64,000 nucleotides of DNA from Microbotryum violaceum (taxonomy: Eukaryota), in the NCBI GenBank assembly GCA_001244265.2, contig CDLV01000014.1, positions 434,001 through 498,000 of the forward strand, read 5' to 3'. Shown piece after piece: positions 38,867 to 59,544 of the stretch; the first letter of the stretch is position 1, and each line of letters begins with the position of its first letter. Made by a program: the position numbers and the translations under genes. The notes under the pieces were generated by a model. The model searched no databases and had not been told where the DNA came from. It saw only the letters and a list, made by a program, of their open reading frames with translations.

Positions 38867-41800
38867 ATGTTTGCGGCCCTCCCAATCCAGGCAACGGCAC
38901 TTTCCCCTCGGGATGAACCCGTGTTGCCACCACTGCTGACGACGCCGACCGCGGCAACGGCAGCGACCGTGACAGCGACGACCATCATGCCGCCGGCTGC
39001 TACCGCCGCCTCCGTCGCCTCTTCCTCCGCCTCGCCAACGACTACAACGCTCGCCAAGACGATCGACCCTTATTCAGACTCGGCCTTGGTTGGCAAAGGA
39101 CACAAAACCGTGCGAGCCATGCTCGCTAGGGGTGCTGCGTGAGTAGAGCATGTCGCCGATCCAGCATTTCTCGCCCCGGGTTCGGGTTGTGTCTCCGACC
39201 GCCGACCGATGCGCCCTCTTTGGCTGCCCTGCCCGCACTTTCTGTCTAGTCGCGCGGCATGGGCATGCTGCACCCTCGAATCCCGAGTCGTCGTCAGCTT
39301 TCGCGCGCGCGGCGCCAAATCCATCCATCCCCCTTCGGCGTTCTATCGACTTCTGCGGGCATGGATGCGCACTTGTCGAGACCCGAGGCAGCCCGCAGGT
39401 AGACGAGGCCCTGCGCGATCCGCCTGACGGCTCGGTTGACGGATATCACTGGGCTTGCTTCGGTGATCGTCACCCACCGCTCAGGCTTGCTGACCAGACA
39501 CTCCCATCTTTGTTCCCTCTTCACCTTCACTTAGATGTGACCTCTGTCGAGCACGCAAGGTCAAGTGCACTGGCGAGAAACCCATCTGTGCCCGTGAGTT
39601 GGTCGTGTCAAAAATTCCCCGAATTCATTCGTCTGCCCTCACCGGCGCGAGAAAAGCCCGAACGCCCAATGCGCGCCCGTGCTCCGACCCAGCTTCATTC
39701 TCGAGCCAGCCGCCAGCCAAATGCCGCCATTGATCACCTGCTAATCAAATAAATCCTCGCTCGTGCTGTCCGGCGCATTGTTCTTTCCGCACTCTACAGA
39801 ATGCCTAAAATCGGCTCGTGGCAATGCCTCTCTGTGCAACTGTGTGTACGATGGCTCCTCGACGCCCAAGCTCGGTCCCAAGAAACCGCGGGCCAAGAAG
39901 GCAGCACAACCGACGACCTCGGAGGACGACGCGGACCAACTCGCCGAGTCAGCCACAGCTTCCGCCGGCGGGCCGGTCTCAGCCTCGCCCGCGTCGGGCA
40001 CGCGAGAGGCAACGGTCGAGGCGGCGTCTGTCACGGCCACCAGTCCTGCGTCCGCCAGCCCTGCTCTGCCAGCCCTGAGAGCGTACCAACAAACTCATCC
40101 TTTTCAAAAAACCAACTTCGTTGGTCCTCCCCTCGGTCCTGCCGGTGCTGCTTCTTCAGCCACCTCGCCCTTGCTGGTCGCCGCCGAGGGAGCTGCCAAC
40201 GCTCCAGCATACCCGCTTGGGGCGTCACAGCCGCTCTCGCTCCCGACACTTCCACAGCCACACTATGCCCCACCGCCACCTTTCGCGTTACCGGGTGCGT
40301 CCATGTCGGATGCGAGTGCTGGCACTATCAAAACCGCGGCACTGCCCTCGCTTTCCGCGCTCCAGGCGGTCGGAGTAAAACGTTCTTTCGCCGAGATGCT
40401 GGCCCACGCCGCACCCAAGCCCAACCTTGTACCCATAGTCCCATCGATTCACGACAACGAGGACGAGGAGGACGACATCGACGAGGATGAACAGCTACTT
40501 GCGGGCCCTTCATCGACGAAACCGCACCAGTCTACCCACGAGGGACCAGTACCCAAAAAGGTGTTGACCGAGACCGACGTCGAACACCTCGTCGATCGCA
40601 TCTCGGAGCTCGAACGGCGTCTGAAGGTACAGAGCCAGCCGTCGATTGCGCCACGTGTTTCGGTTGCGTCTCCGTCGTACTTTGCACAGGCGACGTTCCC
40701 TTCCGCATCGGGCTATGGCATCCCGACCTCGCCGTACGCTGGCCCCGGATCCCCTTACGCTCGCTCGTATGCGATGGACCATCGCCGGTCCTTGTCCCGT
40801 AGCGGCGAGGTTCCGATAAGTACGGACATTTCATCGGCTTGGACCCCCGAGTCGAGTTGTCGCTTCGATGCGGACGGTCCCATGGACCCCAATGGCGGTC
40901 GAGGACGATCAGGCTCCTCAGCAGGGGCGTACGCGAGCTTCATCCCAGCTTCCTCGTACGGCGAGGCGATGCCTTCCGCTTCGGCGAACCGCGGCTCCGC
41001 TTTCAGCAAACACATCCTCCCTTCCTACGCCAACAGCAGCTCATACCCACCTCTCGACTATGACAACTCGGCTGCGCCGCTGGCTTCCTCATCCACGAGC
41101 GGAGGCCCATCCCCGCCGTCCATCACGCGCGTCAACTCGTTTGGTTCCAGTTCGCTCGCGAGAAGCAAAACCTCGGCCGCTACTTCGGAAAGCGAGTACG
41201 GTAACAAGCTGTCTTCGGCGATCGACTCGATATTCGCCGCCTCGGACTCGGGATCCGCATCGCAATCGCCGATGGATGCGCTTAACTTGGACGCCTCGCT
41301 GTTCCAGATTCTCCACCCCGCGTGGGACATGAGCCTTCCTGGGCCTGTGATCGTTCGACACGTCGTTTCGGTTTTCTTCAACCGGGCAATGCGTGCAAGA
41401 GGAATGTTTGACCGTGCCCGCTTGATGGAAGCGCTGCGCAAGGCCCCCTCGGAACCTGACTTCCCTGAGACGGCGCTGCTGCACGCCTTGATGGCCTATG
41501 CCGTACTGTTTGTCTCACCAGAGAGCTTGAAAGATGATCTCGGCTCCTCCCCGTACTGGGCGTCCGAGAAGAGCGCTCGCGTATACCACTACAAGCAGGC
41601 CAAGAAGCGCATCATGGAGGCGCCGCAGTACGCCAATCAACTACAGATCATCCAAGCAAGCATTGTAGCCAGCTGTAAGTGACCACTCTCTTCCAGTTTG
41701 TGTGACCGAGAGTACTCGGCACTGACCGATTGTATGGCTTGGACTTTGCAGACGTCGCATACCAGGAGGGCGAGTTCCACGATCTCTGGATTCTGGGCAG

Positions 41801-42851
41801 TCATTCGATGCGTTTGTGTACCCCGCTCGGTCTCCACGTCATGTCCCCGTCTGGCATGCCCGAATACTCCGACTGGCCTAAGATCGTCAAGGGAGGTCAG
41901 ATTGTGTCCGGCGCCGCCCTGTTTCCGGGGGTCGCGACTCCGCGCGAGCAGTGCGAACGCGAAGCGACGTTTTGGACAGCATTCGCCGTGGACCGCCTGT
42001 TGAGCGCCGCCACAGACTGGCCCGTGTCGATCGACGAGAAGGACATCTCGACGCACTTGCCTTACATTCGTCTCCCCGACGGATCCAACGCGATCGATCC
42101 GACCATCGACGATGCGACGGGCCAATTGACCGCCCTGTCGATCCGCAATCCTCGTCTGTTTGTCGAAAAGTCCCCGGCCATGGACTCGTTCGGGTTGTAC
42201 ATCAAGAGTGCCATTCTTCTTGGTCGCGTCGTCAACTTCCTCCAACGCTTGCCCCGATTTCACGCCTTGCCCAAGAACGAGACGTGCATTTCTCTGCGCC
42301 ACAAATTTATGTCATCGCCCGACTTTGTTGAGCTCGACTATAGCATCGCACGCTATCGCACTCTGATCGTAACCGACTCGGACTTCCTCGACGAAGATGG
42401 CTTGATGGACCACTACCTCGCTTCGGCCTACTGTTTGCCGCATCTCGCTTCGATCCTGTTGCAGGAGGCGATGGTCTCCTTGGAGGATGAAGGCGACGAC
42501 TCGCCGCTCGAGAAGTGCCTTCGTTCGGCCAAGTGCTTGGTCTCGACGAGCGTGCTGATCGCCGCCATGTCGACAGATTGTTCCGGCGCTGATCCCTTCA
42601 CGCCCTTCGTTTGGTCCGTCGTCGGTCGAGCCCTAATCCGCGACTATGCAATTCGTTCATATCGGGGCCAGACCGAAGCCGCGGCCGCCTCGCGAGCGAT
42701 GGCCGAGCAGGTCCTGTTGCTCTCGGAGATGGGTGGTCGCTTTGTGCAAGTGTGCAGGACGGTGTCGTCGACGTTGCGCAAGTTGATGGCCAACCCCGAG
42801 TGCCTCATACCTTTCAACAGTCCGAACGACTGTCCCTTTTCGGACGTTTAG
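38867..42851 (+). CDS. Zn(II)2Cys6 transcription factor with fungal TF middle-homology region
   Basis: Splicing 39138/39535 and 39593/39800 restores ARGAACDLCRARKVKCTGEKPICAQCLKSARGNASLCNCVY. Coiled coil LVDRISELERRL. MHR motif EREATFWTAFAVDR..SAATDWPVSIDEKDISTHLP. Confidence 0.9.
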
Positions 42852-43336
42852 CTGCTCTGCGCCCACCGTTTGATGACGTAATGGCACAAGTGGCGTACAG
42901 TTGTAGGAAAGTCTGGGAGATGGAGTTGGATAGCGATGTATTGTTCGCATTAGGTCAAGTCTCGTTTTTGCTCTCTTGTCGTGTTGTTTTCTTGCGCAGG
43001 GTCCGAATCGTGGTCCAGCCTTGGAGTCTCTATTTCGCATGTAACGACGTACCAGCCGTCCTCGTCACAGTAGATGTGTCCAAAAAAAAAAACGAGCAGA
43101 TATAGGAGTGCCCCGTCTCTCTCGGCGTTTCTAGATTGAATACATCTTGAACGAAACGGAATAAGTGCCGAATGGCACTCAGCAAAGACTTGGTTGCGTT
43201 GCATGACTGCTTATTGAAAGGCAAAATGCGTATGTACTATGTACGACAAGGGTAAGAGGGGAAGGCAGAAATTTGACTCCACTGGGAGTGCATGTCTAGG
43301 AAGGGGGGGGGGGGGGCAGATGGGGGGGGGGCAGAT

Positions 43337-45822
43337 CTAGCACTGCAGGGCCTGTCGCGTCTCATCGGATACCTCCCTGATAACGTTCCACAAGTGGTCG
43401 ATGTGTTGCTCCTTGGTCTGCGTACCGCCGATCGCGACCCTGGTGCACGACTTGCCCCCAACGATCGTCGATGTGAGATGAATGTCCTTCCTCTTCGCGA
43501 TGCGAGCAATGAAGGCTTTGTTGAGCGCTTCCTCATCGCCGCCGTTGGGCTCGAGAAGCCTAATCACGATAAGGGCGAAACGACGGGGCACGAACAGCTC
43601 AAAGCCGTTTCCACGGTGTTCGAGGACGAGGTTCTCGAGGCGCTGGGCAAGTGCGATTCCCTTGTTTAGATGCTCTTGGAACTTCTTCTGGCCGTACGAC
43701 CTCAAGACGAACCACACCTTGAGCGAGCGGAAACGACGACCGAGCGCGATTTGCCAATTGCGATAATCGACGACGAGGCCCGAGTCACTCTCAGCGTTGC
43801 GCAAAAAGGGAGGCGTGATGTCGAATGCCTTGGTGAGGAGACGACGGTCTCGGATGAATAGGAGCGAAGCGTCGAGAGTGACGAGCCCGGACTTGTGGAG
43901 GTTGGTACAAAACGAATGGACTTCGCCGGAGCCGCAAATATCCTTGGCGAGCTTGCCTCGAGTCGAGCGGCGGTTGATGGCCTCGAGATGACACTCGGCA
44001 CGGAGTTCAGGGATGGCGAGGTAGACTCCGCCCCACGCAGCGCTGCGGGAGCAAACGAAGACTCCCGGTCTCAGCTCGGCAGTCGTCTAAGAGGAAGAGT
44101 CAACATGCACTTACTCGACATGGAGGAAAATTGCAGGATAGTCGGCAGCTATGAGAAGAGCAGACGAGGTGTGGATTTAAGATTGGCACTCCGGGAGCAG
44201 ATAACAGCAGATAACACGTCTACGCACTGACTGCCGTGATCTCGGAAATGTTGTCGATCGCCCCGGTGCTCGTCGTACCGACGGTAGCCACTGACCGTCG
44301 ACGACAGCAGGAACTGCCGATTAGTGCATGTGGCGTGGTTAGGAGACCCTGGTGGCGAGTGCTCACAGAAAATGAAAGGCACCTTCCCCTCACTCTCGAG
44401 TGCCTCGAGGGCCTCCCTAAGCTCGGTACCGCGAATCGCCCAGCTGTTCTCTTGCTTAGTGGGAACGGGATGGAAGTGGATGCTCAGCAAGAGGGCCGCT
44501 TTGGCGCCGAGGGAATGTGTCTGCGTCGTTGCGACGATGACCAAATCTTCGTGCTTGGTTTCGGGATGCATGCGCATCACGCGCTCTCGCGCAGCGATGC
44601 AGACGGAGAGGCACGCCTCCGATGCCGAGCCCTGTGAAGACAGAGACATTATGTCAGACGACGGGTGAGGCTATTATTCGTGAGCTTAGGAGTGGGAAAC
44701 GTACGTGGATGATTCCGCCGCCTTCCTTTGACGAGTTGTGAAAGCTTTCGTCGAGGCCGAATAGGGAAGCGCACCAGTCCATCATGCGGACTTCCAACTC
44801 GGTGCAAGCGGGAGAACCTGCAAGAAGCAGAAGGACGTCAAGGTCCGCACGTTCCGAAAAACAGGTGGCAGCCACAGACTAGATGCGATTCGCCTCACAG
44901 AGCCAGTTAAAACCGGGGTTCGACACGCCACCGACCATGATATCGGCAATGATCGATTCGAACGTGGTGTTCGCGGGGAAGTATGCGTAAAAATTTGGTG
45001 ACTGCCAGTGGGTTAATCTTGTATATGAGATCGTGGGAAGCGAAAGGTCCGGTTAGTACTAGTTAGTTCGCCCATAGTAATGTCGCCGAGAGTCTGCCCG
45101 CTCGAATGCCTACGAACGGAAACCTCGCCTCGTATGAAACCATGTTCGGAGATCACTGGACGAAGGGAGCGCTTGATTTTCTTGGACGAGTCGAATGAGA
45201 CACGACTACCGGACGGTGTTCGGACCCCTCTCAAGGACACGCGCGGGGGTGGGGCGGTGCGGTGGGAGAACTCACCCAGGCATGATAATTTTATCGAAAT
45301 CGTCGGCAATATCTTGCCACGCTTCACCCTCGACTGGGGCAGTGTCTGTACAAAGGAGACATGTTTCGCTCAGCGGGTCGGGCATCCGTCACCCCTGACG
45401 GGCAACCGGCGAAGTGGTTGTCTCGTACGCAGGATCCGGGGGCGCCCTCTGAAAGGGACTCAGGAGGCAACGCCGACTCACCAGGAATCTGCTTGCCAAT
45501 GTCATCTGGCTGTACACTAGGCATAACATCGAGCGTCTCCAGGTTTTCGAAGTAGTCACAAACCCTACGAGACGATTATGGACGCCAGGGCATCAAGTGC
45601 GATAACATGGTCAGCGATGACAATTCTTGGCTGAGACTTGGGTGCGCGCCGAAAGAACCGCGCTCCGGTCGTCTGAACATTGAAAGGTGAAGCACGTACC
45701 AGTCGATGGCAGCATAGCCAGCCTTCCGAAATCTGGAATAAATCAAGCCAAAAGCATACGCTTGGTGCTCAGCGGTCGGCATCGTCCATCAGACTACGTG
45801 GCACGTACTGCTCGCGATCCAT
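43337..45822 (-). CDS. Group II PLP-dependent aromatic L-amino acid decarboxylase homolog; probable aromatic acetaldehyde synthase
   Basis: MDREQFRKAGYAAID, IMPGLTHWQSPNFYAYFP, GFNW..SPACTELE..MMDW, TTQTHS, GTTSTGAID, HVD.AAWGG, PLP-Lys NLHKS, ITPPFLRN, DYRNWQIALGRRFRSLKVW. About 8 introns. Confidence 0.93.
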
Positions 45823-47667: not shown

Positions 47668-49636
47668 ATGGTACAACCACGTCGAAGACACCGACCATCG
47701 GATGCAACCCATCCCGCTTCCCAAGCCTTCGACCTAAGGGACTTGGAATCGTTACTTCGGACATGTACGACTCGACGACAATGGTTCATCGCAGCTATGA
47801 CCTCCCTCGCTGTGATCGTTCTCTATCGAAGTGGATCTTCAACAAGAAAACACCACCGAGCCCTCAAGTACGATCGGGATAGAGGAGCGGAGAGGCCGAC
47901 GTTCGCTGCGTTGCCAGAGTTGAGCGACAGGAGGAGGCTGTGGCCACCAGATCCGAGTAGGTCTTGCTTTTCGGGCAGTAATGAGGTGTACTTGATCTGC
48001 ATACGTATCAGACAATGCATCCTGACTGCGACGGCATTCCATCATGCGGCACGTGACCGGCCGAGTTGGCCGTTCTCGCTGCGGAGTACCACTCGCACTC
48101 TGATCCTCCCCCGACCTCCGATGCACCCGGCATCGCTGAAACATGTCCACGAATGCCGAAACACACAGGATTGACGCTTTTCATTTTCTTCGATTGGGTC
48201 CAGATGACCCCATTTGTCAACCCAAGATCTACGTAAGCACTCTTTCGTCTTTTTCCCCACATCTGCCCCCACGCGGCGAATCCTGATACTACCATACTCG
48301 ACCCCTGCAACAACAGGTCCACGATCTCCCTGCCGGACTCGTCCTACCCGAAGCGACGATCTCTCAATGCCGCTGGTCGGCGTACAACTCGGAGCTAGCC
48401 CTCCATTCCCTACTCACTTCTCCGGACGGCCCAGCCTACCCCCGCTCACTCCTCACCACGGACCCAGCCTCAGCGGACCTCTTCTTGATCCCCATGTTTC
48501 CGGCATGTTACCTCTTCGATTGTTGGGTCAAAGCGGGTTGGATCAAGACCGAACGGTGCGACGTCGATGCGTCTTACATCCAACCCATCATGGATTACAT
48601 CTCCACCTCACCCGAGACGAGCGAATACTGGCAGCGTAACGACGGCGAGGATCACCTCATTTTTCATCCTATGGATCACGGAGATGGGTACTACACCGAG
48701 AAATCTCGTGCGGCAATGAACTTGAGTAATTACCTCGTTACTGTGGGCGATCTTCGACCCCCTCCTTACTCGAAGCATTTCAGAAGGTACAAGGATCTCG
48801 TCATCCCTTCCTCGACGCATCTGCTCAATTCGTACCACTTCAACCCAATGGACTATCTCGACGAGTCAGGAAACCCTTTGTCGACGCCGAGGGAAGCTGC
48901 TGATCCCAAGAAACCGACCCCACCTCGAACTCGGGCAGAGATCTTTGTCCCCTCCGCTCCCGCTCCCGCTTCAGGCTTCATCTCTCGCTTCTTCTCGTCC
49001 TCCCCCTCCAAACAAGCCAAAATCGCAGCCTTCTCACGCTCCCATCGTCCCACCACAGCGATCTTCCGAGGTGGAGTAGGCGAAGCAAAAGATGGGGAAT
49101 CGTATGCTTTGGGTATCCGCTCCCTCTTCTTCCCTTCCGATGGGGATCCCACAACCCCTCCCTTTTCCTCCTCGATCCATGACGGTTTCTCCTCCCTCCC
49201 GGATTACGACCTCGCTCTCCAATCCGAGAACCACGATTATGCCCTCGCATTATCCCGAGCTAAATTTGGCCTAGCCCCACCCGGTTACACCTTGGACACG
49301 ACGAGGATTTACGAATACCTCGCTTTCGGCGTCGTCCCCGTCTTCATTGGGACGGGTCAGATCGCGGGTCAAGTTCTTCCGTTCCAGAATGATGTAGATT
49401 GGTCATCGTTCTCGATTGAGATCCCGAGGGATCAAGCGCATCGAGTCCCGGAGATCTTGCAAGGTATTCTGGACGATGGAGGGAGGTACGAGGTATTGAG
49501 GGAGAAGGTTTGGAAGGTGGGTAGGTTGCTCGTGCTTGAGCAGGGGCAAGGGAACGTTTGGAAGTGGTTGGCGAGGGATTTGTGCAGGCTTAGGCGGATC
49601 GGTACAGGCGCGGGCTCTGAGATCGCCAACAATTGA
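47668..49636 (+). CDS. Exostosin-family (GT47) glycosyltransferase, type II membrane
   Basis: N-terminal TM WFIAAMTSLAVIVLY. YWQRNDGEDHL, KDLVIP, FRG, ALSRAKFGLAPPG..DTTRIYEYLAFGVVPVFI, LPFQNDVDWSSFSI. Confidence 0.88.

Positions 49637-56656: not shown

Positions 56657-59544
<2,888 letters not shown>

Follow-up and report, generated by a model that had tools for sequence, protein, structure and literature searches.

A decarboxylase-family gene of Microbotryum violaceum likely to encode an aromatic acetaldehyde synthase of the Tyr-to-Phe class

Introduction

Does an enzyme that looks like an aromatic amino acid decarboxylase (AAAD) but lacks the catalytic tyrosine of this family still release an amine, or does it make an aldehyde? 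The question is raised by a gene on the minus strand of a 64,000-nucleotide stretch of the genome of the anther-smut fungus Microbotryum violaceum (GenBank assembly GCA_001244265.2, contig CDLV01000014.1, positions 434,001 to 498,000 of the forward strand), which is referred to below as the window and in the coordinates of which all positions are given. The gene (45822..43337) belongs to the group II pyridoxal 5'-phosphate (PLP)-dependent decarboxylase family, is intact, and encodes a predicted protein of 499 amino acids in 10 exons; database entries for its homologues bear the names 'aromatic-L-amino-acid decarboxylase' or 'tyrosine decarboxylase'. A preliminary description of the locus had pointed out a Phe in place of the catalytic Tyr and proposed that the product is an aromatic acetaldehyde synthase (AAS). 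Here we analyze the active site, the splicing and the evolutionary context of this gene, and conclude that it most likely encodes an AAS of the Tyr-to-Phe class.

Active site and predicted reaction

The Pfam domain PF00282 (Pyridoxal_deC) is matched by the open reading frames (ORFs) of exon 10 and exon 7 with scores of 97.1 and 33.9 bits, respectively, the curated cut-off being 27. When the orthologue from Microbotryum silenes-dioicae (P0002), which is identical to the predicted product at 491 of the 499 positions, was compared with solved structures using phmmer, the best match was AtPAAS, the phenylacetaldehyde synthase of Arabidopsis thaliana (6eei; E 4.9e-101, residues 1-489). Near full-length matches were also obtained to CrTDC, the TDC of C. 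roseus (6eew; 5.7e-98), to an insect DHPAAS (6jrl; 2.1e-97), and to the DDC proteins of human (3rbf; E ~1e-96) and pig (1js3; E ~1e-95).

In enzymes of this family, a Tyr of the large loop protonates the C-alpha carbanion after decarboxylation, aided by a His of the small loop, and replacement of either the Tyr by Phe, as in AtPAAS, or the His by Asn converts an AAAD to an aldehyde synthase (bioRxiv 10.1101/404970; this and the other papers are cited from their accessible passages). From the PLP-lysine motif through the pocket Gly, exon 10 aligns without gaps to CrTDC and AtPAAS (phmmer), so that, counting residues along the alignment, Lys315, Phe344 and Gly366 correspond to Lys319, Tyr348 and Gly370 of CrTDC; Phe344 falls on the Phe of AtPAAS, and His183 is placed on His203 of CrTDC through the full-length P0002 alignment. 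The protein also possesses Asp265 within a conserved HVDAA motif, presumably the residue that binds the PLP pyridine nitrogen. The numbering of the four CrTDC residues, Lys319, Tyr348, Gly370 and His203, agrees with the published one (bioRxiv 10.1101/404970). Among the aromatic pocket residues listed in the same source, Trp71, Tyr79, Phe80, Pro81, Pro101, Phe103, His314 and Leu321 are retained or conservatively changed, and Ala82, Leu365 and Gly366 occupy the variable positions.

The residues named in the preliminary description are thus all there: the ITPPFLRN loop with its TTT codon on the minus strand at 43807..43805, the Phe at the catalytic Tyr position, the intact His of the QTHS motif, and, in the translation of exon 10, both the WQIALGRRFR pocket segment and the HKS motif. 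The range that it had given, 43740..43910, holds the Phe and HKS codons but ends one position short of the last base of the Gly366 codon (43741-43739), and QTHS lies in an upstream exon.

The large-loop Tyr of a canonical, amine-forming AAAD is missing from the predicted protein, with Phe344 in that column, and the small-loop His that is lost in the His-to-Asn synthases of the EgPAAS type is present as His183. Because the Phe is combined with a retained His, the protein belongs, as far as these residues can tell, to the Tyr-to-Phe class of AAS. We would expect the enzyme to be a cytosolic homodimer of the AAAD family that depends on PLP. In it, an aromatic L-amino acid would form an external aldimine with the PLP bound on Lys315 and then lose CO2. 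With Phe344 standing in for the Tyr that should protonate the C-alpha carbanion, the quinonoid would be diverted to a reaction with O2, and an arylacetaldehyde, ammonia and H2O2 would be released instead of an amine. The O2-dependent route yields an aldehyde, ammonia and H2O2. The overall reaction has been termed decarboxylation plus oxidative deamination (PMC11046786).

Fungal relatives with demonstrated activities lend weight to this prediction. IasA of Psilocybe mexicana, a protein of 500 amino acids with Phe329, forms indole-3-acetaldehyde when produced in Escherichia coli, as detected in the form of tryptophol after borohydride reduction (Seibold et al. 2024, PMC11046786), and uses 5-hydroxytryptophan (5-HTP; 132 %), Trp (100 %), 3,4-dihydroxyphenylalanine (DOPA; 68 %), Phe (61 %) and Tyr (43 %) as substrates. 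The same paper cites an earlier fungal aldehyde synthase, the DOPA-preferring PcDHPAAS of Psilocybe cubensis (AYU58583, P0207), which is 49.7 % identical to the predicted protein over 475 aligned columns. Furthermore, the F329Y variant of IasA acts as a decarboxylase on 4-hydroxytryptophan (PMC12099186). The proposal that the Tyr/Phe exchange leads to aldehyde formation therefore stands for two assayed basidiomycete homologues, one of which becomes a decarboxylase through F329Y, but it is in conflict with CsTDC, a Phe-bearing protein published as a decarboxylase, which is considered below.

Collectively, the intact gene, its splicing as predicted, the full complement of PLP-binding and catalytic residues apart from the Tyr, and the position in one basidiomycete clade with assayed fungal aldehyde synthases favor an AAS function. 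Activity, substrate and physiological role are inferred, and the sequence does not discriminate between Trp, 5-HTP, DOPA, Phe and Tyr as substrates. Possible roles include the release of nitrogen from aromatic amino acids and the supply of compounds that lead on to aromatic alcohols or to acids such as indole-3-acetic acid (IAA).

Distribution of Phe and Tyr among basidiomycete homologues

A search seeded with exon 10 returned 1504 matches, of which the best 120 were taken; all of these are basidiomycete proteins where the source is named, and they include one match per Microbotryum species. At the catalytic Tyr position, 98 of the 120 carry Phe, 21 Tyr and 1 Ile. A further 86 relatives of a Hebeloma protein comprise 70 sequences with Phe and 16 with Tyr, so that in the two sets together (n = 206) there are 168 Phe, 37 Tyr and 1 Ile. 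Phe, found in about four of five of these homologues, is the majority state in Basidiomycota. In representatives of the wider family (50 % identity clusters, n = 149), Tyr occurs 110 times and Phe 20 times, with 11 gaps and 8 other residues.

A FastTree phylogeny was built from 290 of 356 rows, namely, those of 430-600 amino acids with a residue in the Phe and His columns and a Lys in the PLP column. In this tree, the window protein belongs to a clade of 204 tips (165 Phe, 38 Tyr, 1 Ile), the successive sister groups of which mostly have Tyr; at least 35 Phe/Tyr changes are required over the whole tree, a number inflated by the errors of a quick tree. The window protein and PcDHPAAS fall in the same Phe-dominated clade, which also includes CsTDC, with deep nodes that are moderately supported at identities of about 50 %. 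A second, quick tree was computed with IQ-TREE for 44 rows (the window protein, P0002-P0033, P0090 and 10 outgroups; the partial P0048 was left out, and the Phe column, 1 of 504, was retained). Outside Sporidiobolales, all 12 ingroup rows have Phe: four from Microbotryum, one from Leucosporidium, two from Phenoliferia, one from Meredithblackwellia, three from other Microbotryomycetes and one further record. Inside Sporidiobolales (P0013-P0033 and P0090), there are at least four Phe/Tyr changes, two of which separate close paralogues of the same species, Rhodosporidiobolus odoratus and Rhodosporidiobolus lusitaniae, each with one Phe and one Tyr copy.

Judging from this distribution, the Phe in Microbotryum is old and conserved, and neither a chance nor a private substitution. 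Phe is probably the ancestral residue in Basidiomycota, from which Tyr has been regained repeatedly. If aldehyde synthesis were likewise the ancestral and default state there, true decarboxylases would have evolved anew through Phe-to-Tyr replacements, of which Sporidiobolales alone would account for four or more, two of them following recent duplications. We rank this proposal as likelier than the link to auxin discussed below; if it is correct, most of the 'aromatic-L-amino-acid decarboxylase' labels on basidiomycete genes would be wrong. The paralogue pairs of R. odoratus and R. lusitaniae represent natural experiments for the switch between decarboxylase and aldehyde synthase.

The same comparisons do not support three elements of the preliminary description. 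The suggestion that the switch would be meaningful for a plant-associated fungus does not hold because Phe is common across Basidiomycota, saprotrophic yeasts included, and thus marks no such adaptation. Gly366 was taken to admit indolic substrates; Gly is, however, present at this position in 201 of the 206 basidiomycete homologues, irrespective of the substrate known for them and including the DOPA-preferring PcDHPAAS, as well as in AtPAAS, which uses Phe. Being nearly invariant, it points to no particular substrate. Finally, the unusual HKS motif, which had been listed alongside the switch, was rejected as a part of it because both Tyr- and Phe-bearing proteins of Microbotryomycetes contain it: Ser follows the PLP Lys in 32 of the 120 homologues, which are the 32 members of the Microbotryomycetes clade, Trp is found in nearly all the others, and the Ser316 position is not among the aromatic pocket residues listed in the structure study cited above.

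Two further features of the active-site region were recorded. The Phe and Tyr forms of the Microbotryomycetes clade have in common about 17 inserted residues (289-305), which neither the plant enzymes nor the aligned homologues of Agaricomycotina and Naganishia possess. Ala82 and Leu321 match CrTDC, most basidiomycete relatives having Thr and Phe at these positions, which hints, if weakly, at a pocket with more room.

Gene structure and transcript evidence

The exon map was obtained by tblastn guided by P0002, the closest homologue among the matches listed; the borders were set by eye on the sequence, and splicing and translation were then scripted. The spliced coding sequence is 1500 nucleotides long and contains no internal stop codons, and the nine introns, of 72-258 nucleotides, all have GT-AG borders (Table 1).

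Four sequencing runs (X1-X4) were examined, three of which (X1, X2 and X4) come from one study; that they are RNA is a guess, none of them being recorded as such. Contigs of X1, X2 and X4 join the exons across introns 4, 5, 6, 8 and 9, that is, five of the nine, precisely at the predicted borders, skipping 258, 81, 73, 79 and 72 bases, respectively, each stretch reading CT..AC on the plus strand. Support for a sixth intron is hinted at by a loose contig end in X2 at 45346, and the contigs reach none of introns 1, 2 and 7. The simple reading is that the joined contigs are spliced RNA, an intron-less DNA copy as their source being a formal possibility. X3 is filed under a different organism code, and its contigs run colinear with the DNA and thus show no splicing; in one of them there is a 20-base insertion within intron 2 at 45639 and a G>A difference at 44605, and X3 probably stems from a strain or species close to this one.

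The deposited models for two other Microbotryum species, P0003 (M. saponariae, 529 amino acids) and P0004 (M. intermedium, 536 amino acids), are 30-37 residues longer than the window product. Both hold stretches that look like read-through introns, and P0003 also skips a small exon; errors of annotation are the probable cause.

Table 1 Features of the decarboxylase-family gene in window coordinates
Feature	Position	Strand	Evidence
Whole coding region	43337..45822	-	start ATG 45822-45820; stop TAG 43339-43337
Exon 1 (MDREQ...)	45809..45822	-	exon map and splice
Exon 2	45700..45732	-	exon map and splice
Exon 3	45482..45564	-	exon map; 8-letter loose end of X2 contig at 45346 equals exon 3 start
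Exon 4	45276..45345	-	splice; joint 45017/45276 present in X2 and X4 contigs
Exon 5, with pocket residues W71, Y79, F80, P81, A82, P101, F103	44899..45017	-	contig joints at both ends
Exon 6	44705..44817	-	contig joints skipping 81 and 73 bases
Exon 7, with small-loop His183 (QTHS, codon 44517-44515)	44367..44631	-	Pfam PF00282 E 1.9e-08; H183 on CrTDC His203
Exon 8	44228..44290	-	joint 44148/44228 in X4 contig
Exon 9, ending within the Asp265 codon	44115..44148	-	joint 44042/44115 in X4 contig
Exon 10: PLP lysine, catalytic loop, C-terminal domain, stop codon	43337..44042	-	Pfam PF00282 E 1.2e-27; PDB alignments
Insertion of ~17 residues (289-305), shortly ahead of the PLP-lysine motif	43922..43972	-	alignment
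H314-K315-S316 motif; K315, PLP Schiff-base lysine; Ser where most relatives have Trp	43889..43897	-	K315 on CrTDC Lys319
Single codons of the motif	H314 43897-43895; K315 43894-43892; S316 43891-43889	-	codon positions
Phe344 codon TTT at the large-loop Tyr position (ITPPFLRN)	43805..43807	-	structure alignments
L365-G366, equivalent to variable pocket residues Thr369-Gly370 of CrTDC	43739..43744	-	alignment

Weighing of alternative functions

Several points weigh against an AAS. For this protein, as for its relatives in Microbotryomycetes, the activity is a prediction from sequence, and the proteins of this class differ from the assayed enzymes in the insertion of 17 residues and in the Ser that replaces Trp beside the PLP lysine. 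Two published cases are more directly at odds with it: CsTDC, with Phe329, is described as strictly specific for Trp and 5-HTP (PMC11122143), a second paper citing it in like manner, and the Arabidopsis Phe enzyme AtAAS has been reported to convert 5-HTP slowly to serotonin (PMC13619621), which implies that with some substrates an amine can still be formed despite the Phe. It is because of CsTDC and AtAAS that our confidence in an AAS, substantial as it is, stops short of certainty and that two competing interpretations of the product are retained; the Phe rule is strong but is not proven to be absolute in the basidiomycete clade.

The first of these is that the enzyme, despite its Phe, is mainly an ordinary AAAD producing, for example, tryptamine or serotonin, with another proton source in place of the Tyr. 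CsTDC, about 52 % identical to the window protein and likewise Phe-bearing, appears in its database record and in later papers as an L-tryptophan decarboxylase, with Trp and 5-HTP given as its specific substrates; the activity of AtAAS on 5-HTP points in the same direction. However, the decarboxylase label of CsTDC is known from citing papers, the accessible parts of which do not show whether an aldehyde was tested for, and the rate of decarboxylation by AtAAS is very low (Vmax ~3 nmol/min/mg; PMC13619621). Moreover, IasA and PcDHPAAS, which belong to the same clade and have Phe, give aldehydes, and IasA became a decarboxylase only through F329Y. We therefore regard an ordinary decarboxylase as unlikely. 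CsTDC itself is either an exception to the rule or a protein with a product worth re-examination.

Under the second interpretation, the enzyme is bifunctional, with the ratio of amine to aldehyde set by substrate and oxygen, so that neither label alone would fit. Such bifunctionality would reconcile CsTDC with IasA, and the behavior of AtAAS on Phe with that on 5-HTP; for a fungal member, however, the accessible literature passages give no quantitative product ratio, and we consider this option quite unlikely. That the protein is catalytically dead or acts on a non-aromatic substrate, the insertion and the Ser, both specific to Microbotryomycetes, being signs of a changed function, is very improbable indeed, given that conservation extends to the Lys, the Asp, both His and the residues of the aromatic pocket, that an intact and spliced gene shows 98 % conservation from one Microbotryum species to another, and that insertion and Ser are kept over the whole fungal class, Tyr-bearing paralogues included.

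Genomic neighborhood and possible significance

Pfam scans of 21 long ORFs in the 31-60 kb part of the window detected no aldehyde dehydrogenase, oxidase or other gene of aromatic metabolism, and the idea of a gene cluster was dropped for want of such a partner. The convergent neighbor on the plus strand (39745-42851) consists of two long ORFs of 645 and 381 amino acids without a significant Pfam match; a search at E up to 1 gave a sub-threshold match to Fungal_trans (E 0.0056, 16.2 bits against a cut-off of 23). The 3' region common to this neighbor and the decarboxylase-family gene contains, directly downstream of the stop codon of the latter (43296-43335), two long G runs (plus strand; about 19 and about 10 nucleotides) split by a short repeated 'cagat' motif. 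Farther away, an exostosin GT47 domain is encoded by an ORF at 48287-49633 (plus strand; E 4.4e-26) and a protein kinase domain by an exon at 57297-57932 (minus strand; E 9.3e-21); neither is related to the decarboxylase-family gene.

A more far-reaching scenario is that the enzyme serves as a one-step source of indole-3-acetaldehyde or phenylacetaldehyde that would be oxidized to an auxin in Silene flowers and so contribute to the reprogramming of floral organs by the fungus. Given that no neighbor belongs to aromatic metabolism and that the accessible literature passages on Microbotryum and auxin do not mention the gene, this idea is speculation, and we give it little credence.

If the gene does encode an AAS, the current labels are wrong with respect to the product: the reaction would release ammonia and H2O2 and would supply the formation of aromatic alcohols and acids, not of biogenic amines. 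In Microbotryum, the gene would also be a candidate for the step that opens a route to auxin-type compounds, no link to infection having been found in this analysis. Published work already covers the switch, the mechanism behind it and its presence in basidiomycetes, and the window gene is a further member of this group; our search of the fungal literature on acetaldehyde synthases in Basidiomycota, the scope of which did not extend to key subscription papers, found only the IasA paper. The outcome of the survey, that is, the predominance of Phe, its probable ancestral status and the repeated returns to Tyr, may be new. Its broader value lies in the finding that about four of five basidiomycete homologues carry Phe, which makes the product of CsTDC, published as a decarboxylase, worth a second look.

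Comparison with known enzymes

The canonical enzymes of the family, pig and human DDC (1js3 and 3rbf) and CrTDC (6eew), share with the window protein the fold, the PLP site and the aromatic pocket (E 1e-95 to 1e-98) and differ from it in the catalytic Tyr, which the window protein lacks. The insect DHPAAS (6jrl), in which we take the small-loop His to be replaced by Asn, and the sawfly PonAAS2 are members of the same family and carry out, on balance, the same aldehyde-forming reaction. In a gall-inducing insect, PonAAS2 produces the indoleacetaldehyde from which IAA is made (PMC10380194). A second AAS class, among which the insect enzymes have been aligned, is changed at the small-loop His rather than at the Tyr (bioRxiv 10.1101/404970), whereas the Microbotryum protein keeps His183.

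The Arabidopsis enzyme AtPAAS/AtAAS (6eei) belongs to the same Tyr-to-Phe switch class and has the same Leu-Gly pair in the pocket, but in this lineage the switch arose independently, and Ser and Phe take the places of Ala82 and Leu321. CsTDC of Gelatoporia (Ceriporiopsis) subvermispora (ALS05357, P0068, deposited as 'L-tryptophan decarboxylase') is closer, with 51.9 % identity, a position in the same clade, Phe329 and Gly351; its reported decarboxylase activity is the one published conflict with the Phe rule in this clade and, as such, counts against an AAS.

Of the characterized aldehyde synthases, IasA and PcDHPAAS of Psilocybe, for which the proteins of P. cubensis and P. cyanescens were used in place of the IasA sequence, resemble the window protein in length (about 500 amino acids), the large-loop Phe, the small-loop His, the PLP Lys and the pocket Gly, and belong to the same basidiomycete clade. 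They differ in having HKW instead of HKS, in lacking the 17-residue insertion, and in the Thr and Phe that correspond to Ala82 and Leu321 of the Microbotryum protein, at an overall identity of about 50 %. The substrate preference differs between the two Psilocybe enzymes and is therefore not transferable to the Microbotryum protein.

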